Shown: positions 1-34,313 of the stretch, piece after piece
Numbering within the stretch: the stretch's first letter is position 1
Layout: each line of letters begins with the position of its first letter
Assembly: GCA_964634005.1 (NCBI GenBank)
Contig: CAZWKQ010000005.1
Location: forward strand, 40,655-104,654
Direction of reading: 5' to 3'
Length of the DNA: 64,000 nt
Source of the DNA: an uncultured Bacteroides sp.
Lineage (GTDB): Bacteria > Bacteroidota > Bacteroidia > Bacteroidales > JACABE01
Made by a program: the position numbers and the translations under genes
Notes under the pieces: generated by a model
The model's input: the letters and a program-made list of their open reading frames with translations, nothing else
Told to the model about the DNA's origin: nothing
The model's database searches: none

Positions 1-3000
1 CTTAAATACAACTTATCTTGTAGTATTGAAATACACGTTTGTTCCCGGTACTTCAGCATTAGATACTGTTTATTTGTACATAAATCCGTCACCTATTTTC
101 AATGAACCGACTACTCCTGTTATGAAACAATGGGTAAATACAGATGCAACTCAAATTACTGGGATATCGTTAAGACAAGGTTCATCGAGTTCTGCACCGA
201 CAGTTGAAATAGATGGAATAAGAGTGGCACAATCGTGGACTGATGCAGTAGGAGCAACTTCAACCATGCCCCCTGTTTGGACTTCAGGTTGGCCAAAGGT
301 TCAAAATATATTACCCACTTCATTTGAAGCTAAGGTAAATATTGATATACCGGGTATTGCATATTATGTAGTATTACCGAATAATTCAACCGCACCTAAT
401 GCAATACAAGTAAAATCGGGTTTAGATGCAAATAATAATTCCGTTCCTGCTAATATGAAAGGAAGTATTACTTGCAGTTTAGGGAATACTGAGTATTCAT
501 CAACTGTAAGCGGACTATCATCCAATACAACCTACAATGTTTACTTTATTGCCGAGGATAATAATAACAATCTTCAAGCTAATCCGGTAATGGTTTTAGC
601 AACAACAGCTTCAAGTTCTTCTGCACCTTCAATTTCAAACATATCTCCTGCATCAATAACACATAACTCAGCAGTTTTAGGAGGTAATATAACATCTGAC
701 GGCGGAGAGCAAATATTAAGCAGAGGTACAGTATGGAGTACAACTCCCGGTGTTACTATTAGCAATAACTATTTAGCAGAAGGCGGAACATCAACAGGCA
801 CTTTTAGTCACACTCGTTCTTCGCTTCCTTCAAAAACACAAATTTATTATAAAGCATTCGCAACAAATATAATTGGAACAACACTTACAACAGAATCCAG
901 CTTTTTTACTTTAGCAGAAAAACCTGTTTCTCATGTAACTGATTTTACTGCTATTGCCTATTCACCTACAGAAATAAATTTAACTTGGAACCCAACATTT
1001 GGTAATGACGGATATATAATAATTTCAAGAGTAGGAGCCTCAGCACCGACAGGAATGCCTGTTGATGCTACAGGTTATAATGTTGGCAGCGTAATCGGTA
1101 ATGGGACTGTTGCTGCTGTTTTAACAAATGGATCGGCAAATAGTATTTTAATAAGCGGATTAACCCCTATGACTCAATATACTTTTATAATTATTCCATT
1201 TGGTTATGACGGAGCTAATTATCAAACATTCAGTTACAATACCAACCCCACTATACCTCAAGCAGGAACAACAACTTTAGCACCACCAGCTATAACTTAT
1301 ACATGGAATACAACCAAAGGTTCGTGGACAGATGCAAATAACTGGAACCCGATAAGAACAACTCCTGCTACAAATGATATTTTAAAATTCAATAATGGTA
1401 ATATTGATACAATTACAAATGTTCCAACCCAAACCATAGGCCAAATTATTGTTGAAAACAACACACAAGTATTTTTACAAGCGGGAGGCACTAATACATT
1501 ATCAATTTCAGGATATACCGGAGTTGATTTAAGTGTAAGCAATGGTTCAATGCTTAACATTATTGGAACTAATGCATTAACATTAAAATTGCTTACAAAT
1601 GCAACCGGTAGTATATTCGGTTCTATGAATTTTGGCGGCGGAGCCCATAAATTAGAAGCTATCGATGCACTTTCTATTGAATTTAACAATGGCTCGTCAT
1701 TAACTCAAGATATTGGATGTACCGGAAACATTTTTAATAGCACAGGAACTGCTAATATAGTTACATTTAAAAACGGTTCAACTTTTATTCAAAGAGCAGG
1801 GTCTAACCCCTTTGCTTTAACAGCTCCAAGTTCAAAAGTTATTTTTGAGCCCAACAGTTTATTTAAATTGAATACAAATCTTACCCCCTCTTTCTCAGGC
1901 AGAACTTATGGTAATTTTGAATTAGATTTTGTAGGAGCTAATCCAAGTGTATCAGGAGCAAGTGCTGTAGTAATTAATAACTTAATTATTACAAACGGAA
2001 CTTTGAATTTTAACATGACAGCTAATCCAGGACATTCAATAAAGGGGAATATTACTGTTTCTTCGGGTGGAGTTTTGAACTTTGCACCTACTTCGGCTGC
2101 TGTTATTAATTTTGACGGAAGCACACAACAAATCATTGACGCTGCTAATCCTATCAGAATTAACCGTTTCGATACTATTATCGTAAATAACACAAATGGC
2201 TTAATCATAAATGATTCAATTATAATTAACGGAACATTAAAATTAAATGATGGAATTGTTATCCTAAACAACAGTATAACAATCGATTCAATTGGTCAAG
2301 TTATAACAAATAGTATCAATGAATTCATAGTTTTAAATAATAATTCAAAACTATTTAAAAAATTCCCTATTACAGGTGGCTCGTTTTTATATCCAATAGG
2401 AGAAAATCTTCCATTCTCAAAATATTTGCCAGTTAGCATAACTTTTAATTCAGGAACATTTATTCCAAATAATAACTTTGTAGGTTTGAATACTATTGCA
2501 ATGAAACATCCGAATGATTTGAGTACAGGAAACTACTTAAACAGATATTGGATTATTACCGGTTCAGGAATTTCTAACTTTTCAGCAAATATAAACTTCC
2601 AATATGACCTTAATGATATTGCAGGAAGTGAAGGATTAATTTATTGTAAAAATTTCACATCAAACCCAATTGAGATGTTTAATGCAGCTGATGTAAACAA
2701 CCATCAGTTAAATGCAACAGGAGTTACATCTTTTGGTGAATTTGGAGGAGGAGAAAATTTATCAAATAAGACCCTTACCATAAATGCAATCTTAGAAGGA
2801 TTATTTAACGGAACAAATATGAATCCTGTTCAGGACGATATGGGAGATCATATTGGTCCTAATGCTGCTGATTATATTGATGTTGAACTTCATAACTCAA
2901 CAAATCCATCTATAATTGAAGCATCATTTACAAATCAAATATTAGGGACAAACGGAGTTTGCCAAATTACAATTCCATCTTCTTTATCAGATGCATATTA

Positions 3001-3340
3001 TATAGTTATAAAACACAGAAATTCAATAGCAACTTGGAGTGCAATTCCTATTTCATTTAACGGACAAAATATATTCTATAATTTTACAGACGCTGTAAAC
3101 AGAGCTTATGGCGACAATCTAAAACAGGTTGCATCGGGAGTTTATGCCATTTTTGTAGGAGATGTAAACCAGGATGAACTTGTTGATGGAAGTGATATGT
3201 CAGAAACCGAAATTGATAATAATAACTTTATTTCAGGTTATGTATCAACTGATGTTAATGGAGACGGTTTAGTTGATGGTAGTGATATGTCATTAGTTGA
3301 AAATTCAAATAATTCATTTGTTTCAGTAATAAATCCTTAA
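1..3340 (+). CDS. Large secreted/surface protein, 5'-truncated by the window edge. It has FN3/Ig-like segments, a beta-strand-rich core and a C-terminal dockerin-like module.
   Basis: Frame 2 is open from nt 2, with no stop upstream of the TTG at 26, so the true N-terminus lies outside the window. Composition is rich in S/T/N/G. The C-terminus carries two Ca-binding-loop-like repeats, DVNQDELVDGSDM and DVNGDGLVDGSDM. Confidence 0.8.
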   Translation, partial: LNTTYLVVLKYTFVPGTSALDTVYLYINPSPIFNEPTTPVMKQWVNTDATQITGISLRQGSSSSAPTVEIDGIRVAQSWTDAVGATSTMPPVWTSGWPKVQNILPTSFEAKVNIDIPGIAYYVVLPNNSTAPNAIQVKSGLDANNNSVPANMKGSITCSLGNTEYSSTVSGLSSNTTYNVYFIAEDNNNNLQANPVMVLATTASSSSAPSISNISPASITHNSAVLGGNITSDGGEQILSRGTVWSTTPGVTISNNYLAEGGTSTGTFSHTRSSLPSKTQIYYKAFATNIIGTTLTTESSFFTLAEKPVSHVTDFTAIAYSPTEINLTWNPTFGNDGYIIISRVGASAPTGMPVDATGYNVGSVIGNGTVAAVLTNGSANSILISGLTPMTQYTFIIIPFGYDGANYQTFSYNTNPTIPQAGTTTLAPPAITYTWNTTKGSWTDANNWNPIRTTPATNDILKFNNGNIDTITNVPTQTIGQIIVENNTQVFLQAGGTNTLSISGYTGVDLSVSNGSMLNIIGTNALTLKLLTNATGSIFGSMNFGGGAHKLEAIDALSIEFNNGSSLTQDIGCTGNIFNSTGTANIVTFKNGSTFIQRAGSNPFALTAPSSKVIFEPNSLFKLNTNLTPSFSGRTYGNFELDFVGANPSVSGASAVVINNLIITNGTLNFNMTANPGHSIKGNITVSSGGVLNFAPTSAAVINFDGSTQQIIDAANPIRINRFDTIIVNNTNGLIINDSIIINGTLKLNDGIVILNNSITIDSIGQVITNSINEFIVLNNNSKLFKKFPITGGSFLYPIGENLPFSKYLPVSITFNSGTFIPNNNFVGLNTIAMKHPNDLSTGNYLNRYWIITGSGISNFSANINFQYDLNDIAGSEGLIYCKNFTSNPIEMFNAADVNNHQLNATGVTSFGEFGGGENLSNKTLTINAILEGLFNGTNMNPVQDDMGDHIGPNAADYIDVELHNSTNPSIIEASFTNQILGTNGVCQITIPSSLSDAYYIVIKHRNSIATWSAIPISFNGQNIFYNFTDAVNRAYGDNLKQVASGVYAIFVGDVNQDELVDGSDMSETEIDNNNFISGYVSTDVNGDGLVDGSDMSLVENSNNSFVSVINP
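2774..3337 (+). other. 188-aa C-terminal module (Ig-like segment plus a dockerin-like repeat pair). It is paralogous to the module at 25523..26086.
   Basis: My gapless hand alignment with the C-terminus of the 25520..33925 protein gives about 129/188 identical residues (LEGLFNG.NMNPVQDDMGDH ... DAYYIV.KHRNSI.TWS ... AYGDNLK ... GDVNQD.LVDGSDMS ... DVNGDG.VDGSDMS). Confidence 0.7.
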
Positions 3341-3389
3341 AAAAAATAAACTTTACTATAATTTATAAATGTTAATAAAATAAAACACT

Positions 3390-6300
3390 ATGAAAATGAA
3401 AAAAATTATTACGATTATTTTGCTGATTATAGCGTCAGCTATGAAGGTTACTTACGCCGATGTTCATCCGACAGACCCAAATCTCCCAACTTATAGGTTG
3501 ATTTTAAAAAACGATAGTCAGATAACATCAAATATTTACAGTTTCGAAATATGGATTAGTTCAGTATCTTCTGTAGTTCCATTAAATTTAAGGCAATGGC
3601 AAGCAGGGATTAATTATAACACAGCATTTCTTAACGGTGGGACAGTTACTGGCAGTTTAGATTATACAGGCTCGATACTACTTGCTTTTAATGATATGTA
3701 TCCGCAATCTTTAAATGTTGCTACTGCAGGGTCAATTAAAATTGCAGCAAAGTTAGGTGCAGTAACATCTTATATTCTCATTCCAAATACAGGAGTTGAA
3801 TATAAATTAGTAAAGGTTACTCTCACAAATTCTGTTAATTTTGCCCAAGTACAGCCTAATTTATCATGGAACTTCTCAGTATCTCCATACCCAACAAAAG
3901 TTTTTTCATGGTTATCAACATCAACCCCAAACGCTCAAGTTACAATGCCAAATAATGCTCCAGGACCTGTTATTCAATCATGGCATACAACTGACCAATT
4001 AAATAATCATATTTTTAACACTTATCCTCAAATTTACAATGTTACAGGTACAAGTTCATATTGTTCATCAGGTAGTGGAGGTTCTGTTACATTAGTAAAC
4101 TCAGAAACAGGTGTTTTATATGAGCTTATTAAAAATAATATTCCAACGGGATTATTTTACTCGGGGAATGGTAGTGCAATTACATGGAATAATCTTAATT
4201 TTGGTACCTATAAAGTTAATGCACGAAAAATAGGAACAAGCTTAACCAGTCTAATGGCTGATTCTGTAATAATTAATGAAATTACCGGCTTACCCGGTGT
4301 TGCCGGAGCAATAAACGGCAGTAATACTATTTGTCAAGGAACATCTGCAGCTAATTATAGCGTTGCACCAATTTCTAATGCTGAAAATTATATATGGTCT
4401 TACACGGGAACAGGTGTAACAATTAATGGTACTTCTGAGAACGTTATTTTAAACTTTTCATCAAATGCTACCGGAGGGAATCTAACAGTAACAGGCTCTA
4501 ATGCTTGCGGACAAGGAACTACTTCATCACCTTTGGTGATTTCAGTAAGCGACTTGCCTAGTGCTGCAGGGGCAATTACAGGTGTATCTTCTGTAAGTCC
4601 AGGGCAAAATGCAGTTGCTTATTCAGTTCCTGCAATAAATGGTGCCGTTACTTATACATGGACCTATTCAGGGCAGGGAGCAACAATAAATGGCAACTCA
4701 AATTCCATTACGATTGATTTTGGAGCCAATGCAACCCCCGGTTTCTTAACAGTAAGCGGAACAAATTCGTGCGGAAATGGTACTCCATCTCCTGCTTTCG
4801 CTATTAATGTTAATTCTGTACCGGGTGCAGCAGGAAATATTACAGGTACATCTTCTGTTTGTCCGGGCGTAAATAATGTTATGTACACAGTTCCGGAAAT
4901 TTTAGGAGCCGATACTTACTTATGGGAATACACCGGTACAGGCGTTACCATTGATTCAATTCTTGGAGATACAGCATATATTAACTTTTCGATGAATGCC
5001 ACCTCTGGAGTTTTAACAGTAAAAGGTCATAACACTTTTGGATACGGCAATGTTTCTCCTAACTTTATCATTACAGTAAATCCATTTCCTGAAGCAGCAG
5101 GAACAATCAGCGGAAATGACACAGTTTGCAAGAGTTCAAATTCTATTTATACCGTACCTGTTATTCAATATGCAACATCATACGTATGGACACTTCCAAC
5201 AGGAGCAACCGGAACAAGTACTACAAATAGTATAAATGTAAACTTTGGAACTAGTGCTGTAAATGGTAACATTACTGTAAAAGGTCTTAATTCATGCGGT
5301 GAAGGAGCCTCATCTACTAAAGCAATTACTGTAAATACAGTTCCAGCAGCAGCAGGTGCTATCTCGGGACAATCTACTGTTTGTCAAGGCGCAAACAATA
5401 TTACTTATACTGTACCTGCTATAAGTGGTGCAACATCTTATTTATGGACTTTACCAACAGGTGCAACCGGCTCAAGTACTACCAACTCTATAACTGTTAA
5501 CTATTCAACAACAGCAATAAGCGGACAAGTTACTGTCAGAGGAGTTAACGCATGTGGTAATGGTACAGCATCAGCACTTTCTATTACTGTTAACCCATTA
5601 CCGGCCAATGCAGGAACAATTACAGGTTTAACTACTGTTTGTCAAGGACAAAGCGGTGTTGTTTATACTGTACCTTCAATTTCAAATGCAACATCCTATA
5701 TTTGGACAAAACCAAACGGTACAACAGGAACAAGCACTACAAATACAATAACAATTGGTTACACTAATACAGCAGTTAGTGGAAATATTACAGTTAGAGG
5801 AAGTAACTCTTGCGGTCAAGGAAATCTCTCAACGTTAGCCGTAACAGTTAATCCACTTCCTGATTCTGCTAAAGTTGTAACCGGACCTACCACTGTTTGT
5901 AAAAATGAAACCGGCGTTGTTTATAAAGTTCAACCTATTAATAATGCTACTTATTATAGTTGGACATTACCAAACGGTATAATTGGTAGCAGTATAACTG
6001 ATAGCATAGTAGTAAATATTACAAACACAGCTGTTTCAGGCAGCATAATAGTTAAAGGTATGAATTCTTGTGGCGAAGGCGTTGCAACAAGTTATGCTGT
6101 TACTGTAAACAGTGTTCCAGCAGCAGCCGGAACTATATCAGGTACTTCCTCAGTATGTAAAGGTCAAAGCAACAATGTTGTATATACAGTTCCTGCTATA
6201 GCCGGAGCTACCTCATATATATGGACACTACCTACAGGCTTTACAGGAACAAGTACAACTAACTCAATTACTGTGAGTGTAACAGCAAATGCAATCTCAG

Positions 6301-7940
6301 GAAATATTACAGTTAAAGGTTCAAATACTTGTGGTTTTGGAGCTGAGTCAACTTTCCCTGTAACAGTTAATACAATACCGGATTCTGCAGGAGTAATAAC
6401 AGGATTAACCTCTGTTTGTCAAGGTCAAAATAGTGTTACTTATACAGTACCTACTATTAATGGTGCTACTGCTTATTCATGGACATTACCTGCAGGTGCT
6501 ACCGGAACAAGTACTACAAATTCAATTACTGTCAATTATGCAAGCTATGCTGTTTCAGGCACAGTAAAAGTTAAAGGACAAAATACTTGCGGTTTTGGTG
6601 GCGAATCATCTCTTTCTGTTACAGTTAATCCATTGCCAAGCAACGCAGGTGCTATTACCGGTCCTGCATTAGTTTGTAAAGGACAAACCGGTGTAACATT
6701 TACTGTTCCTGCAATAAATAATGCGACTTCATATAGTTGGACATTCCCGACAGGATTTACCGGAACAAGTACAACTAATTCAATTACAGTTGATGTAACT
6801 AATACAGCTGTTTCTGGAAATATCACTGTTAAAGGAGTTAATTCTTGCGGTGAAGGTCAGGCTTCAATAAAAACTATTACTGTTAGTACAGTTCCAAATG
6901 CTCCAACATCAATCACCGGACCGGATAACGTTTGTCAAGGAGCTCAAAATCAACAATATTCTGTTCCAACTGTAACCGGTGCAACTTCTTATAGCTGGAC
7001 ATTACCATCAGGTGCAACCGGTACAAGTTCAACAAACAGTATTTTTGTTAATTTCAGCAATACAGCCACTTCTGGCAATATTGTAGTTAAAGCTCAAAAT
7101 GTTTGTGGAATCGGCGATTCAATTGCAAAATTCATAACTGTAAACTCTGCTGCAGCCGCTGCAGGTGCAATTACCGGTTCAGCAACTGTTTGCCAAGGTC
7201 AAAATAATGTAGTTTATAACGTACCTGCTATTTTAGGTGCAACATCTTATGTTTGGACATTGCCTAATGGCTTTACAGGTTCAAGCACTACAAACTCAAT
7301 TTCAGTTAATATAGCAAACAACGCAACTAACGGAACTATCTCTGTTTATGGAACAAATACCTGCGGTGATGGTGCTCCGTCTAATTTTGCTGTTACCGTT
7401 AATCCTTTACCTGATGCTGCCGGTAATATAACAGGTGCCGACTCTGTTTGCCAAGGAGATATTAATATTCAGTATTCAGTCGCTTCAATTCCTAATGCTG
7501 TAAGTTATATTTGGGAATTCAGCGGAACAGGTGCAACAATTTCTTCTAACACAAATATTGTTACAATTAACTTTTCTTCTACAGCTACATCAGGAAATCT
7601 GACAGTTAAAGGAAATAATGCTTGCGGTGATGGTGTCGTTTCTGCAAACTTCCCAATAGTTGTTAAAAACTGCGTAGGTATTAATGAAAATAATGATATC
7701 AGTTACTCAATTTATCCTAATCCGACTAAAGGAATTATTTATTTGAATATTGATGCAGTTTCGTTAAAATTAGAAATTCAAATAACTGATGTAAAAGGCG
7801 AAGTAATTTCTACCGACAAATTAAGTGTTGATAAACATTTCTCAAAAGAAATCGATTTATCGGCATACTCAAAAGGAATTTACTTTGTAAAAATTATAAA
7901 TGATAAGTTTGTTAAAGTAGAGAAAGTTATACTTCAGTAG
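3390..7940 (+). CDS. T9SS-sorted cell-surface protein. It has a signal peptide, a beta-sandwich N-domain, 13 tandem Cys-containing Ig/PKD-like repeats and a Por/T9SS C-terminal domain.
   Basis: 1516-aa ORF. The N-terminus MKMKKIITIILLIIASAM looks like a signal peptide. A repeated unit (CxG...Y.V......Y.W..P.G..G.S.TNSI.V.......G...V.G.N.CG.G) follows. The C-terminus YPNPTKGIIYLNI...GIYFVKI matches the T9SS sorting-domain pattern. Confidence 0.9.
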   Translation: MKMKKIITIILLIIASAMKVTYADVHPTDPNLPTYRLILKNDSQITSNIYSFEIWISSVSSVVPLNLRQWQAGINYNTAFLNGGTVTGSLDYTGSILLAFNDMYPQSLNVATAGSIKIAAKLGAVTSYILIPNTGVEYKLVKVTLTNSVNFAQVQPNLSWNFSVSPYPTKVFSWLSTSTPNAQVTMPNNAPGPVIQSWHTTDQLNNHIFNTYPQIYNVTGTSSYCSSGSGGSVTLVNSETGVLYELIKNNIPTGLFYSGNGSAITWNNLNFGTYKVNARKIGTSLTSLMADSVIINEITGLPGVAGAINGSNTICQGTSAANYSVAPISNAENYIWSYTGTGVTINGTSENVILNFSSNATGGNLTVTGSNACGQGTTSSPLVISVSDLPSAAGAITGVSSVSPGQNAVAYSVPAINGAVTYTWTYSGQGATINGNSNSITIDFGANATPGFLTVSGTNSCGNGTPSPAFAINVNSVPGAAGNITGTSSVCPGVNNVMYTVPEILGADTYLWEYTGTGVTIDSILGDTAYINFSMNATSGVLTVKGHNTFGYGNVSPNFIITVNPFPEAAGTISGNDTVCKSSNSIYTVPVIQYATSYVWTLPTGATGTSTTNSINVNFGTSAVNGNITVKGLNSCGEGASSTKAITVNTVPAAAGAISGQSTVCQGANNITYTVPAISGATSYLWTLPTGATGSSTTNSITVNYSTTAISGQVTVRGVNACGNGTASALSITVNPLPANAGTITGLTTVCQGQSGVVYTVPSISNATSYIWTKPNGTTGTSTTNTITIGYTNTAVSGNITVRGSNSCGQGNLSTLAVTVNPLPDSAKVVTGPTTVCKNETGVVYKVQPINNATYYSWTLPNGIIGSSITDSIVVNITNTAVSGSIIVKGMNSCGEGVATSYAVTVNSVPAAAGTISGTSSVCKGQSNNVVYTVPAIAGATSYIWTLPTGFTGTSTTNSITVSVTANAISGNITVKGSNTCGFGAESTFPVTVNTIPDSAGVITGLTSVCQGQNSVTYTVPTINGATAYSWTLPAGATGTSTTNSITVNYASYAVSGTVKVKGQNTCGFGGESSLSVTVNPLPSNAGAITGPALVCKGQTGVTFTVPAINNATSYSWTFPTGFTGTSTTNSITVDVTNTAVSGNITVKGVNSCGEGQASIKTITVSTVPNAPTSITGPDNVCQGAQNQQYSVPTVTGATSYSWTLPSGATGTSSTNSIFVNFSNTATSGNIVVKAQNVCGIGDSIAKFITVNSAAAAAGAITGSATVCQGQNNVVYNVPAILGATSYVWTLPNGFTGSSTTNSISVNIANNATNGTISVYGTNTCGDGAPSNFAVTVNPLPDAAGNITGADSVCQGDINIQYSVASIPNAVSYIWEFSGTGATISSNTNIVTINFSSTATSGNLTVKGNNACGDGVVSANFPIVVKNCVGINENNDISYSIYPNPTKGIIYLNIDAVSLKLEIQITDVKGEVISTDKLSVDKHFSKEIDLSAYSKGIYFVKIINDKFVKVEKVILQ
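4302..7673 (+). repeat. 13 tandem in-frame coding repeats of about 86 aa (about 259 nt) each.
   Basis: Each unit starts with AG.I(T/S)G....VC.G and ends with N.CG.G......(I/V)TVN..P. I counted 13 units by eye in the translation. The copies are diverged rather than identical. Confidence 0.9.
7698..7937 (+). other. Type IX secretion system C-terminal sorting domain (about 80 aa).
   Basis: ISYSIYPNPTKGIIYLNIDA...LSAYSKGIYFVKIINDKFVKVEKVILQ. The YPNP...G and GIYF.K motifs are typical of Bacteroidota T9SS CTDs. Confidence 0.8.
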
Positions 7941-13827: not shown

Positions 13828-15444
13828 TTAAACTGATATTTTTTTCAGATTTTCAATCACTCTTATATACTCTTCACTTTTATCCAGATTGCTTTTTAAA
13901 GCATTTTCTATTGTTATAATCTCTTTTTTGATATTTATTAGAGTCTCATCTTTTAAATTATCTATGGTTTTATTAATTATTTCAGTATAGTCAGAAGTTA
14001 TTCTGTGAATGTTCTTATCAACTTCATCGGGTATTTGCTTTAAAAAATATTTTTTGAAAAGCTTTTTGAAAATTATCATAGGAAATATAAACCATAGAAG
14101 ATCCAAATGATTATCAAATGCCCTATAAATTGAAATATCAGGTCTTTTTATCCTTTTAAACTCAATATTCCATTCATTAGAAGATATGCTTATACCTAAA
14201 GTGGTTTTGATATTGTTACTTAATCGTTCTCTAAATGACCTTGAAAAAAAATTAAAATGTTTGTTAATATCTTCAAGAACACTTTCGATCTTATTGCTTT
14301 CAATATCAGCTATCAATGAAATTTTTTCAGATAAAGTATATTTTAACCAAAATTCATATTTTCTTGTCAATTTGTAAAGATTGCCATTCCAGCTATCATA
14401 AACTGTAATGAACTGATTTGAAACTTCCTCAATAATTTCATTTTTATGAGCATTTAAGATATTATAAATTTTATCTCTCATATTATTCTTTATATCTGTC
14501 GAGAATAATACGATTTCATGGTTAATAAATGTAAAATTTGTTTTCTCATCAAATATCTTTGACGCAATTATTTTTTTTTCTTCTTCGGTTTTCTGTGCAG
14601 ATTTTAATGAAATTTCAAAAAAAGCGTTACAATATCTTACTAATAGATTTAATTTATTTTTTATAATCAACTGATACTCTGATTCAAATTTTTGAATTAA
14701 TTTATCAAGCACTTCAACTTCGAAGATGTTTTTGTATCTATCAGTTTCTTTTATAGTTGAATAATTATAAACTTCAATTTCAATATTAAATTTGCGTTTC
14801 AAAGTAGATTTAACAAAATCGTTAATTTCTGAGATTTCCTTTAAATTAAACAAATCAACTTTTGTAATCAAACAAATAACCTTATAAGAATTTGCTATTA
14901 GTTCTTCAAAAAGCGTTATATCAGTCTCCGAAAGTGGCCGTTCGGCACTCACGCATACTATGGCAATGTTTGTTTCAATAAAAGTGCTTTCTGTTGTTTC
15001 GTTATTATTTTTATGAACACTTCCTAATCCCGGAGTATCGGTAAAACATAAGCCTTTGAATTTTGCTGTTTCAGGGAGTTCAATTAACGCTATATCAACA
15101 TTTTTTGAATTGCCGGGATTTTTGTTTTCGGTTATATATTCTTCTAATTCATTTTCGGAAATTTCTTTTTTTCTTTTATCATTAAAATATATTGTTATTC
15201 TTTGATTTTCGCCGTAAATTATTTTAGTAATTATGGATGTTGCAGGTAAAACCGAAGTAGGCAAAATTTTTTTATTAACTAAACTGTTAATAAATGAGCT
15301 TTTACCGGCTTTAAATTGTCCAAATACAGCAATATCGATATATTTGTTCTTTGATGATAGTTCTATTGAATTTATAAGCTTTTCAACAGAGTTGATTTCA
15401 TATTCTTCACAAATTGATTTTAGTTCATTTAGTATTTTTTCCAT
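13828..15444 (-). CDS. Dynamin-family (bacterial dynamin-like) GTPase.
   Basis: Motifs seen are the P-loop FGQFKAGKSSFINSL, G2-region LPATS, G3 DTPGLGS and G4 TKVD. A long helical C-terminal half follows. Confidence 0.75.
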   Translation of the reverse strand: MEKILNELKSICEEYEINSVEKLINSIELSSKNKYIDIAVFGQFKAGKSSFINSLVNKKILPTSVLPATSIITKIIYGENQRITIYFNDKRKKEISENELEEYITENKNPGNSKNVDIALIELPETAKFKGLCFTDTPGLGSVHKNNNETTESTFIETNIAIVCVSAERPLSETDITLFEELIANSYKVICLITKVDLFNLKEISEINDFVKSTLKRKFNIEIEVYNYSTIKETDRYKNIFEVEVLDKLIQKFESEYQLIIKNKLNLLVRYCNAFFEISLKSAQKTEEEKKIIASKIFDEKTNFTFINHEIVLFSTDIKNNMRDKIYNILNAHKNEIIEEVSNQFITVYDSWNGNLYKLTRKYEFWLKYTLSEKISLIADIESNKIESVLEDINKHFNFFSRSFRERLSNNIKTTLGISISSNEWNIEFKRIKRPDISIYRAFDNHLDLLWFIFPMIIFKKLFKKYFLKQIPDEVDKNIHRITSDYTEIINKTIDNLKDETLINIKKEIITIENALKSNLDKSEEYIRVIENLKKISV

Positions 15445-25519: not shown

Positions 25520-28500
25520 TTACGGTTCGATTGCTCCTATAAAGTTGTTATTATTTGTTTCAACAATTGACATGTCAGAACCATCAACAATGCCATCACC
25601 GTTAACATCTGCAACTATATATCCAGAAGCAAAATTATTATTTTCTAACTCAATATCAGACATATCACTACCATCAACTAATCCATCTTGATTTACATCA
25701 CCTACATATATCGCGTAAACGCCGGTTGCAACTTCTTTCAGATTATCGCCATAAGCAGATGAAGCAGAATTAGTAAAGTTGTAATTGATTACCGAACCAG
25801 TAAATGACAGAGGAACTGAGCTCCAAGTTTGAATACTGTTTCGATGTTTAACTACTATGTAATAAGCATCGCCTAAAGTAGATGGTATTGTTATTGAACA
25901 CAAACCATTTGTAGAAAGCAATTGACCGGTGAATGAAGCAGCTGTTACAGAAGGATCTAAAGCATTTCTGAGCTCAACTGTTATTTGATCTGCAATGTTA
26001 GAACCAAAATGATCTCCCATATCATCTTGAACAGGGTTCATATTTACTCCATTAAACAGACCTTCTAGGAAAACTGTAATATTAAGTGTCTTACTTGCTA
26101 AATATTCATCAGCACCTATTGTTGGTAATGGTCCTCTTGCTTGTCCGTCAATATCATCAGTTACTTCGGGAACACTTGTTCCTTTTTCAGTTAATGCAAT
26201 ATTATTAATATGTAAATCCATAATTGAATCAGTAAATTGAGGATACACATTAATAGAGAATGCATCTCTGCCACTTGCTGCTTGATAAGCTGCCAATGTA
26301 GCTCTTGCACTTGTCCAATATGCTATATTTGCTCCTGTAGTAAATAAACAGTTGTAATTGCTCGAATCAAGTATTGTACTGCTGAAATATACAGCATAAC
26401 CACCACCGGTATTCGAGAATACGTTATTCAATAATTGCATACCTGTTGTAGTTCCAGTTTGATAATAGCCATAATTTGTCGTGCTGCCTTTAGTAATACT
26501 TATACTATTATTATAGAATTTAGTATATTTTGTATTGCTGTTATAAATAGCATAAACACTTCCTGTTCCAACAGATTGAGCTACAAAATTATTTGCAATT
26601 AAACTATTTCCGGTAGAGGAATTATTATAATACAGATACATACCATAACAAGTACTTGTACCCCTCAGATAAATTTGATTTTTAGAAATAATAACATTAT
26701 CGTTGTAATAAGAGCTCAAACCATATTGAGTAGAAGCAGTGGTTCTATTTAACAAATAATTACCCTCTATTATTGTATTATTTTGATAATAAGAATAAAT
26801 ACCGTAATAGAAGAAGTCAATTATTCTGTTATTTCTGATAATATTATTTGATTCTTTAACAGTAGAACTGGTTCCTGATAAATATACTCCATAATAACCA
26901 TTTCGTATAACATTGTTTTCGATAACCATATTGCTATCAATACCGGTAGCTGAATAAATACCCGCAGTTGTAGATGCAGTACCTGTTAGTGAACTTTCAA
27001 TAATATTATTAGCAATTCTCACGAAATTGGTACCACCTAGCATATCAATTGCTCTTCCGTATGTTACACCTCTGTTTTGTATTGTTAGATGTTTTAAAGT
27101 AACATAATCTGCACCATTTAATCTTATAACATAATTATCTGTAGAAGTCAAAGAAGAATCGCTGATTACTACAGATGTACTGTCGAGGTTCTGAGACTGG
27201 AATGTAATTGTTTTATTTGCTGCTACTCCCTCAACATGGTTGATTATTAGTTTCTCATTGTAGATTCCGGGGAGAATATTAAATACGACATTTCCACTTA
27301 TTCCAACTGTATTCAGCACATTTACCGCTGAATTGATTGTAGGAAAGTCTCCGCCAGTTCCTATTGTATATGAACCGTTTAAGCTCACAATAATTGTACC
27401 TGTGGCAGTATCATTTATTGCATAATTATCAACAGAACCATTAGGATTATATGGCCATGCTTTAATTGATAATATTCCTGAATTTGTCAGTAGTTTATTA
27501 GCAATAGTAACTTCACCGCTAACATTTCCTTGGGTAATGTTTCCTGTCCAAGAGTATGGAGTTTGTAATGCTCCGTTTATTGACCAGCCAATCATTACAG
27601 ATGTAAGATTTGCAGAACCGTAATTTTTAATCTTAACTTTAATAGGAACTGTTGAGCCTGCACTTACAGAAGTTGTCGGAAGAATAAGTGTATCAACACC
27701 TGCATCATTTGCTGGTATATTGGAAATATTAACTTGTAACGGAACTCTATTGCTCTCACAAGTACTTGCAGTTCCTGTTGTTACTATCCAGTTATAAGCA
27801 TTATACCAGTAGTTTTGTCCCGAAGAAAAAGTATTACCGGTTATAGAAATTACATTAGGAACAGTATAAGGATAAACGGCACCTGCAGAATTTCTGAAAA
27901 AGCTTGGACCAGAAGTATATCCTAATCGGTAGCCTGTACCTTGAGGAATATCGAAGTTTAGAGTTACAGTTTCAGGTAGGCTGCTTCCAACAGTAGTTGT
28001 ACCATTGTAAGAACGAATTACATTTCCGCCTGCATCTTTTATTACTAATACATAAGCAGAACCTGATGTAGCAGGATATATTTTTACTGATTTTAAAGTT
28101 ATTCCACCAGGTGCTAATACATCAAATACCTGATCATAAGAAGTAGCTCCAATGGTTCCGCCGGCACCTATAGTACTGTCTGCCGGTCCGACTTGATACT
28201 GATTAAAAGTATTTTTTGATGAAGCTAAATAATATGTCTTGTGATTGAATAATATTGGAGTGGTATAAGTACTGCCAAGTTTCAATGGAACAGTATCATT
28301 AAGTGCATTGTACCATCTGATACTATCTGTTGAAGTTGCAGATAATGTAGTTGATGTTGCATAAGGTATAGAAACTGGGCTAACAAATGTAGGAGCAGGT
28401 GGAGTATAACCGGATGTAACACTCTTTGAAAGAGTATCGTTTATACGCAAAGGATCGTTTATCAAATCTGTCCAAGCTGTAATTAAATAATTAACATCAG

Positions 28501-31500
28501 CTGTAGGAGCAGGTAAGTTAGCTTGTGTACTAAAAGTAAAGTTTACAGAACCTTGTGCAGGAATATCTAAATTTACATTCTGAGTAACAACTGTACCATT
28601 ATCAATTCTATAGCTTGCAGTTAAACTATTTTGAGAAGCTAAAATTGGTTGTGAACCTTCATTTTTAATTTTAATAGTAACACTTTGATTATTTAATGCA
28701 CAGCCTGATGATGGATTAACAATCTGGACAACTGAAGCATCCTTAGTTGCAGGATCACCTACAACTGCAGCTATCATAAACCTTCCCCATGTTAGAGACT
28801 CAACAGGAGTAAAACCAGTTAAACCACTGCTGTAATAATAAGCACCTCTTCTGGTCGGTGTTTCAGCCTGGCATGATATTGGATAATAAGCTGCAGCATT
28901 TGCTACTTGAGCAATACCAACATAAACAAAATTATTTGTTGTAGAAGTTGATGATGGATGTAAGAAATCAAAAGTTACCCATGTGTTTAAATCACTTGAA
29001 GTTATAGTTTTTCTGAAAGAAGTATCCATTAAAACTCCATTATTGTTGAAAATTACTCCATAAAGTGATTTTCCGACAGTAGCACTATTAGTTATAAATA
29101 CTTTGGTTGAATATATTTGTTTAGTACCATTAATAGTGTATTTATTTACAAAATACCCTGCATTTGTTCCAAAGCCTATACTTGTTGCAACAATTGCGGT
29201 ATCAGAATAGTTAAATGTATTATTTGTAACTTCTTGACGATAGTTCAGTTGGTTATTAGTGTTTACCTCATCATTTGGAACAGATACTTTTACATTATTT
29301 AAGCCTAATGCAGTTGGAGTAAAGCCATTAAATATTACTGTATCAACTGCACCGGATGCTAAACTTGCAATTGTTTTAACATTTGTGAATGTATTAGCTC
29401 CTGTAATATTAAGTGTTACGTTAATATTAGACTGAGCATTTGTACCATTATTTTCTATTAATGCACTAACAAAATGAGGTGCTCCAGTTTGTAATGGTAA
29501 TTGACCAAGTGTATAAAGAGCTTTAACTTTAATATCATTAGAAGGAATTATAAACTCATCTGCTCCTATACAAGGATTTACTCCTCTTAAATCTCCGTCT
29601 ATATCATCATTAATTCCTGATATTTGTACTCCGGCATTAAGTAATTGCATATTATTAACAACATGCAAATCATTATTAGCTGCAAATAAAGGATTTACAT
29701 TTTTAGAATTTGCATCCTGAGTTGAAGAAGCCTGCCAATCGGCAAGTGTTGCCTTATCAGCACCGTAAAATCCTAATACACCATAAGTACCACTTACGAA
29801 ATAATTATTGTAATTAATATTTGCAAATGAAACTCCACTTACAACATAAGCTGCATAGCTCTTTGATCCGCTTACAGAGAAATTAGTAGAGTTTGCAAAA
29901 ATATTATTTCTTACATCCATACCGGTTGCTGTTGTTACTGTAACAACAAGAGCGGCCGACATACCTGCAGAGCTACCGGTTGTTACATTGCCATATAAAT
30001 TTATTGAGTTAAAATAAATTTTATGATTAGTTCCACCTGTAACTCTGATACCGAATGCATTGTAAATAGTACTTGATGTAGAGTAATTAACAGTTATCAG
30101 GTCATAAATCATATTATTTACTATGTTAATATTGCTTGTTGATGTTGAAGAGATATTGATACCGAACGCTCCATATCCTGATGATGATGTGGAATATATA
30201 CCATAAATTTTGTTCTTACTTATAACAGCATCAGTAACATTTGCGCCTAAATCGATACCGGCAATATTAATAGAAGAAGATGTTTTTAGATTAAAGATTG
30301 TATTCTTTTCAACTAAAGGTGCTGTGGTATTACTCAAAGCAACTCCTCTGAAAATAACATAGTCATTTGCATTTTCAGATCCTACAACATTGCCTGAAAT
30401 TGTTAATCCGGTTAAAAGACCGGTTGAAGCAACTCCTGATGCATAAATACCATAATAAGTCCTTTGGATAGTATTATTCTGAATAGTTAAGTTGTTATTA
30501 TCGGCACCTGTTCCTGATGTAGAAATACTTGTTCCTCCGACATAAATACCGAATGTTGAAGTTACTGTATTACTACCGGCTTTGATAATACAATTCTTTA
30601 TTATATTGTTAGTAGCACCTAAACCGGCTCCAAGACTTGAAACCCAAATAGCGGCAGTGTTAGTTGAAGTTGAAGTATTTTCTATTGTAAGACTGTTACC
30701 TCCACTGTTTAAACCGTCTATTATAAGATTTTTATTTCCGTTTAGTTTTATCAAAGCACTTGCAATATTACCGGTTATTACTCTTGCCCCTTGCGGTTGT
30801 ATTATTAATGTATAGTTACTGTTAGCAGGATATTCATTCCAAGAATTAATTGAAACTGTTGCAGTTTCTGTTATATCACTTATAATTTTTGCAGTAACAT
30901 TTCCCATTAGACCTAATTGATTAACATCTGCGAAAAATGCCGATAATGTTGAATAATCACCTCCTGTACCTATCTGATAAATACCACTTAAAGGAGTTCT
31001 GATTGTCCTTGTACCATTAGGAGCACCATTAACCGGTTGGTAATTGTTACCATTAATATTAACATCAACAACTTCAGCATCTACAACATTTAAATTAGTA
31101 GCTGAGGAGTTAATATTATAGGTCAACCAAAAATAATTTATACCTGTATTTAAAGTAACCGGCAAACCGGTTCCTGTATTAATTTGGAATAAATTATTAG
31201 GGTTGTTGTAAGTATTGCCAATCTGTGTAGCATTAGCAAAATTGTTTACATTTCCCGAACTCCACAATTTAGCATTTTCGATGTCATTTAGAGGGTTAGA
31301 ACTTCCATTAGTATTAAAAGTAATACCTTCTAAACTTAGTGGGTTAAGAGAATTACTTGTATGTACAGCTATTCTTAGTATAACATTATTTGCAGAACCT
31401 GTAGCTACCGATGCTAAAACAGGATGAGTTACTGTTATTGAATCCAATACCATAGTTGATGGAGTAAATTCATCTGCTCCCATATCGGTAGGATTATTCC

Positions 31501-33925
31501 TCAATTGACTGTCAATATCATCCGGAACTTCGGGCAACTGCATACATGAGCCGTTTAAAGCCATTTCTGAAATATGCAAGTCTGTTGATGAAATAAATGC
31601 AGGATTTACTGAAATTGAATTTGCATCTTTTCCGGTTGTTGATTTCCAAGTATTTAAGTTATTTACAACAGCTGCAGTATTATAATACCCAATATTTGTT
31701 CCTGTTGAAAATATATCGTTATAATCCATAGTAGTTATATAACCAAGTGTAACAGCTCCCGATGTAATATAAACAGCATATCCGCCATTAGTATTAGCAA
31801 AAATATTATTTCTAACATCTACATTGCCATACGTTCCTGAAGTAGCAGATGTTGCATAAAAAGCAACACCGCCTGTTGCAGATCCTGCAGCAATATTTAC
31901 ACTGTTATGATATATTTTCTGATAATTTCCATAATTTGAGTAAAGACCGTAAGCAGTTCCGGTTGATTGAGTAATAGTTACGAAATTATTAGCAATAAGA
32001 ATTTCTTGTCCTGCTATACCATCACAATAATAAGGATATAAAGCATAAGTTGTTGAAGTACCTCTTGCATGAATTTTATTGCTTAAAACTGTTGTGATAT
32101 TGTCACAATAAGCAAGATAAACGCCATACTCCGTTGCATTTACTCCTCTACCTGTTACTGTATTTTTTTCAACTTTAATGCCATCTTGTGCATATAAATA
32201 CACTCCGTAATTGTTCCAGTCAACAATAGTGTTATTGATTATTTTATTACCTGTTTCCAATGCAGTAGTTGAACCACCATAGATATATAATCCGTAGGAA
32301 CCATATTGAATATAATTATTCTGAATGGTCAGGTTATTACACATGTTCGCGGTACCTGATTGAAAATAGATGGCTGAATAAGCAGTTCCGGTTGTTGTTC
32401 CGGTAAATCCAATAATTCTGTTTCCAAGTAATGTTATATACTCACTCATTCCTATACCATTAACGACACAAGCATAAGAACCAATTGTACCTGTTAATTG
32501 AATAGTAATATTCTTAACTGTAGTATAATCAGCACCATCAAACTGTAGAACATAGTTTGCTGATGAAGTTGGAGTGGCCTGCAGTATAACATCATTAGGA
32601 TTTCCGGTTAAAGACTGAAATAATACCGGATTAGAAACAGAAACACCGGGAAACTGAGTTAAATTCACCTGCTCGGTATAGGTTCCGGATGCAATATTGA
32701 AAGTAACGCCACCTGTTCCTACACCGACAGAATTCAACGCCGCCAAAGCATCGGCAAAAGTTTGGAAGTTATTTCCTGATGTAGGAAGTGCTGAATTAAT
32801 TGTTTTAACACCTGTTAATGGATACCTTACAATTCTTCCCGGACCGGGATTTGTAACAGTAGGTATTTTTGTTCCTGCGCCTGTTAAAGTAAATGTCGTA
32901 CATTCAGCATCTAATACATTTCCATCGGCGGTACCAGGTGCAACATCATAAGTCAACCAAAAATAATTGCTCCCGCTTGCCAAAGTATTATTTGTTGTTG
33001 GGGTAAAAGTAAAAGAACCGCTTGGATTTAAAATATCACTGCCTAATTGAACTGCATTAGAAAAAGTCGGAGAATTTGTATAAAATAATTGAGCCTTAGC
33101 AATATTTGAAGTGTTTGTTGTTCCATTTGTATTGAATGTTACAGATGTTAAACTGAATGGTGATTGATTACCAGTAACATTAACCTTTAGTGCAGCTATA
33201 ACCTGTTGAGTTTGAACACCCATAATTGGCGAAGTTATTGGCTGTATTGTAGTAGCTGAATCATAAACCATAGGTTGATTAGGCATTGTATACCATATTT
33301 GAATATTCGGACGATGTTTATATCCAGCAACAGAACCATTTAAAGTTGCAGCAGGAGTAGTTGATGTAGAAGTACCACCAATAATGTAATCTGCGGTAGG
33401 AGTTGAATATTGCCATTTAAAAGCATCAGTAGGCTTTGTTCCTGAACCAACATACCATAAGAAAGCTATTTCTAAGTTTCCGCCTGTATAAGTAAAAGGA
33501 TTAATTGGAAATTCAATCCATCCTATAGTCGAAGGAACTGTTTGGGCACTATTATCATACACCAACGTATGTCCGGCAGTAATTGATGCCCATGTTGTTG
33601 AAGTAGAAAGAGGTGGTGTTAATGAACTGTTTTTCATATAGATTTTAAAAGAGCCATTAGCCGTAGTTGCGGCATTATTGGTCTTATAAAAAGCTAACTT
33701 AGAAATTATCGCTCCGGTTGTTATACCAACAGCGGCCAATTCCGACTGTGTGTAAAGAATATCTGAATTTATTGTTAAAGTAGTTGATGTGCTACTATAA
33801 CAATAAATAGGCGCATACAAAGTATTTGCAGGAACTTCCGTACCTATCCCTATCTGCACCTGCGCATTTAGAAAAGTTACTCCCGTAAAAAGTAACATAA
33901 ACAAAAAGATAATTTTCTTTCTCAT
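25520..33925 (-). CDS. Giant (about 2800 aa) secreted right-handed beta-helix adhesin-like protein with a C-terminal dockerin-like module.
   Basis: The signal peptide MRKKIIFLFMLLFTGVTFLNAQ begins at 33925 (the ORF track begins at 34027). Three blocks of parallel-beta-helix-like repeats (N..I.NN.I...YG(I/V)Y) are present, each preceded by a G.Y.IG.GGD(F/Y)...... segment. The C-terminus carries the 188-aa shared module. Confidence 0.85.
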   Translation of the reverse strand: MRKKIIFLFMLLFTGVTFLNAQVQIGIGTEVPANTLYAPIYCYSSTSTTLTINSDILYTQSELAAVGITTGAIISKLAFYKTNNAATTANGSFKIYMKNSSLTPPLSTSTTWASITAGHTLVYDNSAQTVPSTIGWIEFPINPFTYTGGNLEIAFLWYVGSGTKPTDAFKWQYSTPTADYIIGGTSTSTTPAATLNGSVAGYKHRPNIQIWYTMPNQPMVYDSATTIQPITSPIMGVQTQQVIAALKVNVTGNQSPFSLTSVTFNTNGTTNTSNIAKAQLFYTNSPTFSNAVQLGSDILNPSGSFTFTPTTNNTLASGSNYFWLTYDVAPGTADGNVLDAECTTFTLTGAGTKIPTVTNPGPGRIVRYPLTGVKTINSALPTSGNNFQTFADALAALNSVGVGTGGVTFNIASGTYTEQVNLTQFPGVSVSNPVLFQSLTGNPNDVILQATPTSSANYVLQFDGADYTTVKNITIQLTGTIGSYACVVNGIGMSEYITLLGNRIIGFTGTTTGTAYSAIYFQSGTANMCNNLTIQNNYIQYGSYGLYIYGGSTTALETGNKIINNTIVDWNNYGVYLYAQDGIKVEKNTVTGRGVNATEYGVYLAYCDNITTVLSNKIHARGTSTTYALYPYYCDGIAGQEILIANNFVTITQSTGTAYGLYSNYGNYQKIYHNSVNIAAGSATGGVAFYATSATSGTYGNVDVRNNIFANTNGGYAVYITSGAVTLGYITTMDYNDIFSTGTNIGYYNTAAVVNNLNTWKSTTGKDANSISVNPAFISSTDLHISEMALNGSCMQLPEVPDDIDSQLRNNPTDMGADEFTPSTMVLDSITVTHPVLASVATGSANNVILRIAVHTSNSLNPLSLEGITFNTNGSSNPLNDIENAKLWSSGNVNNFANATQIGNTYNNPNNLFQINTGTGLPVTLNTGINYFWLTYNINSSATNLNVVDAEVVDVNINGNNYQPVNGAPNGTRTIRTPLSGIYQIGTGGDYSTLSAFFADVNQLGLMGNVTAKIISDITETATVSINSWNEYPANSNYTLIIQPQGARVITGNIASALIKLNGNKNLIIDGLNSGGNSLTIENTSTSTNTAAIWVSSLGAGLGATNNIIKNCIIKAGSNTVTSTFGIYVGGTSISTSGTGADNNNLTIQNNTIQRTYYGIYASGVASTGLLTGLTISGNVVGSENANDYVIFRGVALSNTTAPLVEKNTIFNLKTSSSINIAGIDLGANVTDAVISKNKIYGIYSTSSSGYGAFGINISSTSTSNINIVNNMIYDLITVNYSTSSTIYNAFGIRVTGGTNHKIYFNSINLYGNVTTGSSAGMSAALVVTVTTATGMDVRNNIFANSTNFSVSGSKSYAAYVVSGVSFANINYNNYFVSGTYGVLGFYGADKATLADWQASSTQDANSKNVNPLFAANNDLHVVNNMQLLNAGVQISGINDDIDGDLRGVNPCIGADEFIIPSNDIKVKALYTLGQLPLQTGAPHFVSALIENNGTNAQSNINVTLNITGANTFTNVKTIASLASGAVDTVIFNGFTPTALGLNNVKVSVPNDEVNTNNQLNYRQEVTNNTFNYSDTAIVATSIGFGTNAGYFVNKYTINGTKQIYSTKVFITNSATVGKSLYGVIFNNNGVLMDTSFRKTITSSDLNTWVTFDFLHPSSTSTTNNFVYVGIAQVANAAAYYPISCQAETPTRRGAYYYSSGLTGFTPVESLTWGRFMIAAVVGDPATKDASVVQIVNPSSGCALNNQSVTIKIKNEGSQPILASQNSLTASYRIDNGTVVTQNVNLDIPAQGSVNFTFSTQANLPAPTADVNYLITAWTDLINDPLRINDTLSKSVTSGYTPPAPTFVSPVSIPYATSTTLSATSTDSIRWYNALNDTVPLKLGSTYTTPILFNHKTYYLASSKNTFNQYQVGPADSTIGAGGTIGATSYDQVFDVLAPGGITLKSVKIYPATSGSAYVLVIKDAGGNVIRSYNGTTTVGSSLPETVTLNFDIPQGTGYRLGYTSGPSFFRNSAGAVYPYTVPNVISITGNTFSSGQNYWYNAYNWIVTTGTASTCESNRVPLQVNISNIPANDAGVDTLILPTTSVSAGSTVPIKVKIKNYGSANLTSVMIGWSINGALQTPYSWTGNITQGNVSGEVTIANKLLTNSGILSIKAWPYNPNGSVDNYAINDTATGTIIVSLNGSYTIGTGGDFPTINSAVNVLNTVGISGNVVFNILPGIYNEKLIINHVEGVAANKTITFQSQNLDSTSVVISDSSLTSTDNYVIRLNGADYVTLKHLTIQNRGVTYGRAIDMLGGTNFVRIANNIIESSLTGTASTTAGIYSATGIDSNMVIENNVIRNGYYGVYLSGTSSTVKESNNIIRNNRIIDFFYYGIYSYYQNNTIIEGNYLLNRTTASTQYGLSSYYNDNVIISKNQIYLRGTSTCYGMYLYYNNSSTGNSLIANNFVAQSVGTGSVYAIYNSNTKYTKFYNNSISITKGSTTNYGYYQTGTTTGMQLLNNVFSNTGGGYAVYFSSTILDSSNYNCLFTTGANIAYWTSARATLAAYQAASGRDAFSINVYPQFTDSIMDLHINNIALTEKGTSVPEVTDDIDGQARGPLPTIGADEYLASKTLNITVFLEGLFNGVNMNPVQDDMGDHFGSNIADQITVELRNALDPSVTAASFTGQLLSTNGLCSITIPSTLGDAYYIVVKHRNSIQTWSSVPLSFTGSVINYNFTNSASSAYGDNLKEVATGVYAIYVGDVNQDGLVDGSDMSDIELENNNFASGYIVADVNGDGIVDGSDMSIVETNNNNFIGAIEP
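25523..26086 (-). other. 188-aa C-terminal module with a dockerin-like repeat pair. It is the paralog of 2774..3337.
   Basis: GDVNQDGLVDGSDMSDIE ... DVNGDGIVDGSDMSIVE. About 129/188 residues are identical to the gene-1 module by hand alignment. Confidence 0.7.
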
Positions 33926-34313
33926 AATAAAAAAATTGATTAATACTAAAATGTTTAAATTTAATTTAAATTCTATTTGATTAATTAAAAGCTCATTAAG
34001 AATAAAAAAATATTCTTTAGACCCCAAATTTTCAGCCTGTAAATATACTAAAAATTTTTACTAAATTTTAGTTTCTAAATTTTTTAACATTTTTTAATTC
34101 TTTTTTATAAATTTAGAAACTTAGAAACATCAAAAGAGCTATATGTTTTAATCATTCTAAAAATCAATAGTTGTTTTAGATGAAATTTATTAATTTGTCG
34201 AATAAAAATTGCAATTAGTCTATTTTAATAGGCAAATAAATATTTCAAATCCATACTTTTGCTTATCAAGTTAATTTTTTATTATTTTTGTTTTAATTTT
34301 AAGTAAAGAAACA

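Follow-up and report, generated by a model that had tools for sequence, protein, structure and literature searches.

A predicted cohesin-fold module on a stalk protein with a T9SS sorting domain, paired with X-dockerin tails in Bacteroidales

The window analysed here, a stretch of 64,000 nucleotides from an uncultured Bacteroides sp. (assembly GCA_964634005.1, contig CAZWKQ010000005.1, positions 40,655 to 104,654), carries at 3390..7940 of its forward strand an open reading frame (ORF) for a protein of 1516 residues, termed 'hypothetical protein' in the sole source that names it. We refer to it as the anchor protein. Its N-terminal domain has the predicted fold of a cohesin, and the gene immediately upstream encodes a protein that ends in an X-module and a dockerin-like tail (together X-Doc). 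With a probability of roughly 0.65, in our estimate, the anchor protein is an anchoring scaffoldin that is sorted by the T9SS (type IX secretion system) and stalked by PKD repeats, and whose cohesin-fold tip binds the X-dockerin of proteins without a sorting domain. In our view this is a new form of the cohesin-dockerin system that has diverged in sequence and that uses the T9SS for anchoring.

Cohesin fold of the N-terminal domain

An AlphaFold2 model of residues 24-211 of the anchor protein, built with the alignment of the family described below, was all-beta and of high confidence (predicted local distance difference test, pLDDT, 90.4; predicted template modelling score, pTM, 0.88). When the model was compared with the PDB using Foldseek, each of the 33 matches with E<=1e-3 was a cohesin, at probability 1.00, and the best was 6kgf_C (E 4.6e-6). 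Type I cohesins (C. acetobutylicum CohA2, P. cellulosolvens ScaB), type II cohesins (A. cellulolyticus ScaA/ScaB, C. thermocellum SdbA) and a type III cohesin (R. flavefaciens ScaC) were all among them. The template modelling (TM) score, normalised to the target, was 0.65-0.67 for the best cohesin match. The first non-cohesin was a family 2 carbohydrate-binding module (CBM2; 1exg, E 1.1e-3), and modules attached to glycoside hydrolase family 9 (GH9) also appeared lower down. A second, independent model, made for the family member P0033 of 36% identity, again matched cohesins. The two models make it well supported that the N-terminal domain adopts the fold of cohesins, a nine-stranded beta jelly roll (CATH 2.60.40.680).

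An earlier note on this DNA, written from the sequence by eye, had proposed a cohesin-like domain, and the fold search, with cohesins alone at its top, bears that proposal out. The note had drawn a beta-sandwich of about 150 residues at 3459-3914. The sandwich is there in the model but it is longer, about 175 residues (residues ~30-205): the fold reaches residue ~203 with a final strand SWHTTDQ, which places the end of the domain at about nt 4000-4020. The strand pattern on which the note had relied held for four of the quoted segments, IYSFEIWISS, LNLRQWQAGIN, SIKI and EYKLVKVTLTN, which coincide with strands of the model, but not for LSWNF, merely a two-residue bridge. From the model, the Foldseek matches and the family we delimit the cohesin-fold module to 3459..4022 on the forward strand, with a structured core at residues ~35-203.

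To the window's domain belongs a large family. An exhaustive phmmer search with residues 24-211 against 1.84 billion cluster representatives (50% clustering) returned 265 proteins at E<=1e-3, 76 of them at E<=1e-10. The domain thus defines a genuine family and not a chance resemblance, and this family, which counts several hundred cluster representatives or more, has been missed by Pfam, NCBIfam and PDB sequence searches. It is about 165 residues long and lies directly behind the signal peptide in 138 of the 150 representatives listed. Some relatives carry two or three copies in tandem (for example P0004, P0008, P0012, P0016 and P0047); the anchor protein has one. Other searches found little: a word-indexed homologue search returned a single 252-residue fragment for the N-terminal domain and four proteins for the family alignment, and no locus could be confirmed when metagenomes were scanned with the domain of the window itself.

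Could the fold match be that of a generic beta-sandwich, without biological meaning, or the product of a mis-annotated ORF start? The TM score normalised to the query is just 0.53, and identity to the matched cohesins in the Foldseek alignments is 8-15%. Against such a coincidence stand the 265 representatives, the agreement of two high-confidence models, the cohesins that fill every place down to E<=1e-3, and the presence of the identical anchor protein on 14 contigs from several samples. This explanation is strongly disfavoured, and we regard it as very improbable.

X-dockerin tails and their pairing with cohesin-like domains

The cargo gene in front of the anchor gene is cut by the start of the window, which retains its 3' part (2..3340, forward strand). 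We took the full-length sequence from an identical metagenome contig (L001), where the gene encodes 1278 residues with a signal peptide of its own; Pfam found weak fn3 similarity only, and no T9SS sorting domain, in the cargo protein. Its C-terminus is an X-Doc module (2768..3337) composed of a beta-rich X region (~2768-3150) and a dockerin-like tail (3158-3337). The 60 residues of this tail contain two DxNxDxxxDxxD loops, DVNQDELVDGSD and DVNGDGLVDGSD, spaced 30 residues apart, and the same pair at the same spacing closes a second giant protein of the window, encoded at 25520..34027 on the reverse strand. The two X-Doc tails are 69% identical over 190 residues. Taken alone, they scored 22.1 bits (cargo) and 23.6 bits (25520..34027 protein) with the Pfam model Dockerin_1 (PF00404), for which the gathering cut-off is 22.9 bits; the tail at another locus, L011, reached 26.7 bits.

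The last 190 residues of the cargo protein retrieved 100 homologues from metagenome-assembled genomes (MAGs) of Bacteroidales and Ignavibacteria, many with a precomputed PF00404 match. The conserved unit spans 187 residues, is always extreme C-terminal, and consists of the beta-rich X region (LEGLY...VELH...YYIVIKHRNS) followed by the two calcium loops. A hidden Markov model (HMM) of this unit was matched end to end in nearly all Bacteroidales loci, and without its first 23-43 positions in Ignavibacteria. What characterises a dockerin is a duplicated C-terminal segment of about 22 residues, in which a 12-residue calcium loop (DxNxDGxxDxxD) leads into a helix. Two such loops close both tails of the window, and helices stand behind the loops in the modelled tail of the family member P0033. 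With a beta-rich X region directly in front and conserved together with it, the cargo tail has the make-up of an X-dockerin dyad of the type II/III kind. Within each protein the two dockerin halves are alike, and such resemblance between halves is a trait of dual-binding dockerins. Positions 10-11 of the loop, which set specificity in clostridial dockerins, vary among loci L007-L021 (GS, GT, GG, LG, LS, IS, IT).

We then asked how the two modules are distributed relative to each other. Scanning with a family sub-alignment, one genome per species, gave 15 loci from about ten Bacteroidales/Paludibacter MAGs, and the six-frame translations of these loci were searched with HMMs for cohesin-like and X-Doc modules. 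At 14 of the 15, the ORF that begins with a signal peptide and a cohesin-like domain is directly preceded, on the same strand, by an ORF with X-Doc at its end; stop-to-stop frame gaps between the paired ORFs are mostly 20-270 nt. The order, X-Doc first and cohesin-like domain next, is repeated in the window and at loci L028 and L029, making 17 of 18 independent loci. Two more, L022 and L023, show the same arrangement but duplicate L014 and were not counted separately. L028 is a 79%-identical orthologue in which the gene pair is kept while the other flanks differ from those of the window. Upstream members of the pairs are large proteins without a T9SS sorting domain, and downstream members recurrently consist of a cohesin-like head and a PKD/Ig stalk that ends in Por_Secre_tail. 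Moreover, 30 of 150 family representatives contain both domains in one polypeptide. The cohesin-like and X-Doc families are tightly linked.

In the window the earlier note had put the anchor gene 50 nt behind the dockerin-tailed gene; the upstream stop codon ends at 3340, and the AT-rich gap (3341..3389, forward strand) is 49 nt long. No terminator-like site was found in it, and the two genes are probably co-transcribed. We considered whether the pair is a single gene split artefactually and ruled this out: a real stop codon, the gap (49 nt here) and a fresh signal peptide divide the two genes at every locus. A tandem array of paralogues, each with both modules, was likewise rejected as the cause of the adjacency; a cohesin-like domain is missing from most of the upstream genes, as X-Doc is from most of the downstream ones.

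The fusions provided a further view of module identity. In the simplest of them (P0033, P0040, P0062 and P0085, ~380-410 residues) a signal peptide is followed by one cohesin-like module and one X-Doc. A model of P0033 (382 residues, mixed alignment) reached pLDDT 93.2 and pTM 0.87; its X region was all-beta, and helices at 326-337 and 357-369 stood one behind each calcium loop. The top PDB matches of the P0033 model were fragments of C. thermocellum CipA comprising CohI9-X-DocII (4fl4_C/L/I and 3kcp_A, E 5e-8 to 3e-7), and single cohesins came next in the list. The CipA fragments aligned over the whole chain at a low TM score of 0.30-0.37, hence the order of modules is shared with CipA and the inter-domain geometry is different. 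This predicted structure confirms the identities of the Coh-X-Doc modules.

Such minimal proteins could be adaptors or could polymerise head to tail. At locus L029, a further ORF with a terminal X-Doc stands in front of P0033. In large cargo proteins at L015 (6278-11350) and L017 (2057-6205 and 6284-11359), and in P0024, P0106, P0107, P0134 and P0137, an internal cohesin-like module precedes the protein's own C-terminal X-Doc by about 100 residues. Cargo of this kind could form daisy chains. The spacer between the internal module and X-Doc looks BACON-like by eye only (WTA.SNQ.WCTV...ITV). One Bacteroidales MAG, KR5_bin-778, has eight separate cohesin-like loci, all among the 15 of the scan.

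The linkage also bears on whether the domain is instead a jelly-roll tip that binds a carbohydrate or another ligand, on an ordinary T9SS adhesin that neighbours X-Doc genes because surface-protein genes are gathered in co-regulated islands. The CBM2 and GH9-attached modules lower in the Foldseek list would suit such a tip, as would the lack of sequence similarity to cohesins. The dense clustering of X-Doc genes (viewed from the X-Doc side, 13 modules were counted in ~50 kb, with a single cohesin-like module nearby) also makes adjacency by chance likelier, and the single exception to the paired order, L018, is a stand-alone gene for a cohesin-like domain, fn3/PKD repeats and a sorting domain, behind relA. 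However, island density hardly produces a strict order and strand in 17 of 18 loci together with a fusion rate of 20%, nor does it explain a pair that is kept while its flanks change, as between L028 and the window; and the matches at E<=1e-3 are all cohesins, not CBMs. We hold a ligand-binding tip to be unlikely.

Tandem X-Doc clusters were seen at L024 and L025 (Bacteroidales) and at L026 and L027 (Ignavibacteria), with Peptidase_S8, GEVED, BACON, FG-GAP and Sortilin domains in the cargo. The X-Doc-tailed proteins at these four loci all lack a T9SS sorting domain. Near the two Ignavibacteria loci, no cohesin-like module came to light.

Predicted display on a T9SS-anchored stalk

The remainder of the anchor protein consists of a signal peptide, a short domain, a stalk and a sorting domain. 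The signal peptide, MKMKKIITIILLIIASAMKVTYA, was read directly from the sequence (3390..3458, residues 1-23, forward strand) and its cleavage site is a prediction. Between the cohesin-fold module and the first PKD_6 repeat lies a domain of ~90 residues (4023..4290, approximate) without a significant Pfam match, the best being He_PIG at E 0.12. A stalk of 13 PKD_6 repeats (PF19408, E 8.6e-221) occupies approximately 4291..7700. The T9SS type A C-terminal sorting domain, with the stop codon, spans 7710..7940 and was recognised both by Pfam (Por_Secre_tail, PF18962, residues 1441-1514, E 1.2e-13) and by NCBIfam (TIGR04183, E 2.2e-10). The repeat number and the sorting domain are those that the earlier note had read from the sequence. 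A sorting domain at the extreme C-terminus combined with an N-terminal signal peptide is the mark of type A cargo, and from these signals we infer that the anchor protein is secreted and attached to the cell surface.

We therefore set out the following model as a proposal. The anchor protein would be exported by Sec and then by the T9SS, its type A domain directing it to the cell surface, where the 13 PKD_6 repeats would form a stalk holding the sequence-divergent cohesin-fold module at its tip. This tip would bind the X-dockerin dyad at the C-terminus of proteins that themselves lack a T9SS sorting domain. Of the candidate ligands, the 1278-residue protein encoded 49 nt upstream comes first. 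The outcome would be the display of giant adhesin-like proteins, held non-covalently on a covalently attached stalk. Given the conserved gene pair and the modules themselves, the cohesin-like domain and X-Doc very likely make up a snap-together system; since the dockerin carries two EF-hand-like loops, binding would be calcium-dependent. We infer the physical contact indirectly, from the gene pairs at 17 of 18 loci and the fusions in 30 of 150 representatives, and its dependence on calcium from the loops.

The protein at 25520..34027, of about 2800-2835 residues, is likely a second ligand of the same anchor. It has a signal peptide, and Pfam recognised two BNR_assoc_N domains, four beta-helix stretches, CARDB and Ig_7 in it; its X-Doc module lies at 25523..26092 on the reverse strand. 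No cohesin-like gene adjoins it, and the anchor gene is ~22 kb away. The TTG start listed for this ORF is probably wrong, as a typical signal peptide, opening with MRKKIIFLFMLLF, starts 34 codons further in. In general, X-Doc tails far outnumber cohesin-like modules, and X-Doc genes are often distant from any.

Several observations weigh against the display model. Resemblance to the cohesin fold is moderate, with ~40 extra residues and the query-normalised TM score already given. At sequence level, Pfam at E<=1 matched PF00963 in none of 40 aligned family members nor in the window protein; the family profile retrieved no PDB cohesin; and hhalign found no similarity between the family and CipA Coh7 (1aoh), at probability 0.05. 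The pTM of the P0033 model does not show that the dockerin touches the face of the cohesin. A mirror-tree comparison of 15 adjacent pairs (r 0.80, with 0 of 5000 permutations as high), to which we give little weight, is confounded by shared ancestry. Finally, the model names no route by which X-Doc proteins that have no sorting domain cross the outer membrane; if it is true, the question arises how they do so.

The 40 aligned family members matched no Pfam family whatsoever even at E<=1, and a PDB sequence search with the single N-terminal domain returned nothing relevant; the first ~280 residues of the anchor protein had no match in Pfam, NCBIfam or PDB sequences. The hmmscan that the earlier note had suggested brought up no rival family, but it left PF00963 (Cohesin) unmatched as well, and membership of the N-terminal domain in that sequence family is not supported.

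In a rival reading, the place and purpose of binding differ. The cohesin-like domain and X-Doc would bind each other as in the display model, but would do so in the periplasm; the partner with the sorting domain would then take the X-Doc protein along through the T9SS translocon, or proteins with both modules would assemble into fibres by polymerising head to tail. X-Doc does occupy the position that is usual for the T9SS sorting domain in surface proteins of Bacteroidota, a domain that X-Doc proteins lack. The nearly one-to-one order of cargo and then anchor suits dedicated carrier pairs better than a scaffoldin serving many enzymes, and there are the minimal proteins, in which a signal peptide, a cohesin-like module and X-Doc stand without cargo or anchor. 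X-Doc genes, however, exceed cohesin-like genes and are often far from any, the second X-Doc gene of the window included; and our literature searches turned up no piggy-backing through the T9SS, for which we know of no precedent. We consider carriage of this kind, or fibre assembly, improbable. Its fullest form, with X-Doc as a second kind of C-terminal sorting tag in Bacteroidota and Ignavibacteria that is bound in the periplasm, rides the T9SS with its partner and also builds head-to-tail fibres, seems slightly less probable still. Were it true, the T9SS would select its substrates at a second level as well, through non-covalent contacts.

Relation to known systems

The closest known counterparts of the display model are the anchoring scaffoldins of clostridia and ruminococci, exemplified by the type II cohesins of C. 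thermocellum SdbA/OlpB, which bind the X-DocII dyad of CipA (2b59, 3kcp, 4fl4). Shared with them are a cohesin jelly roll on a cell-anchored protein, here as a predicted fold, and a partner that ends in a dyad of X-module and dockerin with two calcium loops; the Coh-X-Doc order of the fused relatives is that of the CipA C-terminus. Dockerins outnumber cohesins in cellulosome producers, as X-Doc tails do cohesin-like modules here. In contrast to the anchoring scaffoldins, the window's system belongs to a Gram-negative Bacteroidales host, its anchor carries a T9SS sorting domain in place of an S-layer homology (SLH) domain or a sortase signal, its N-terminal domain has no detectable sequence similarity to PF00963, and the adjacency of its cargo and anchor genes is conserved.

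The cargo differs too. Instead of carbohydrate-active enzymes (CAZymes), the window's cargo consists of giant non-enzymatic repeat and beta-helix proteins, in which Pfam found neither a glycoside hydrolase nor a carbohydrate-binding module (CBM). Relatives carry He_PIG, fn3, GEVED, Sortilin/BNR, BACON and Peptidase_S8 domains in their cargo. A cellulosome comprises dockerin subunits that degrade plant cell walls and a scaffoldin with a CBM, and the window's system has neither. The suggestion in the earlier note of a cellulosome-style display therefore holds for architecture but not for cargo, which is non-enzymatic (fn3, beta-helix, BNR_assoc_N, CARDB).

A precedent for the anchoring mode is found in Ca. 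Stygibacter (Cloacimonadota), in which Williams et al. (2021) described a scaffoldin-like protein with cohesins and CBMs and an inferred T9SS C-terminal domain (PMC8542988). Both systems come from the Fibrobacterota-Chlorobiota-Bacteroidota (FCB) group, and in both a T9SS domain is inferred to anchor a cohesin protein that would hold dockerin-tailed secreted proteins. In Ca. Stygibacter, InterProScan recognises the cohesins and dockerins, the cohesins are in tandem and accompanied by CBMs, and the cargo consists of hydrolases (PMC8542988). Unlike these, the window's cohesin escapes sequence models, is present in a single copy and has one cargo gene as its upstream counterpart.

Orphan dockerins have been reported in Bacteroides and Prevotella of the rumen (PMC6487960) and in Bacteroidales of the cockroach gut (PMC10266427): proteins with PF00404-type tails, in genomes that have no PF00963 cohesin, and with no partner given. 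For years these tails have lacked a cohesin partner, since searches with PF00963 come up empty in this group (PMC6487960, PMC10266427). The cohesin-like family is a candidate for the missing partner. Our literature searches found no description of the family or of the X-Doc/cohesin gene pair. The genomic rule that a gene with an X-Doc tail comes first and a gene with a cohesin-like head next predicts specific binding pairs. If the display model is true, cohesin-dockerin assembly would also serve to display giant adhesins and proteases on T9SS anchors, in a phylum that is dominant in the environment and the gut, and protein engineering would gain new orthogonal Coh-Doc pairs.

The rest of the window, with a GC content of ~31%, is ordinary chromosome encoding xseA, an inositol monophosphatase, NfeD, MatE, ThrRS and others. 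Amid these housekeeping genes, and unrelated to the finding reported here, lies a gene for a dynamin-family GTPase (13828..15444, reverse strand; Dynamin_N, E 2.6e-26).

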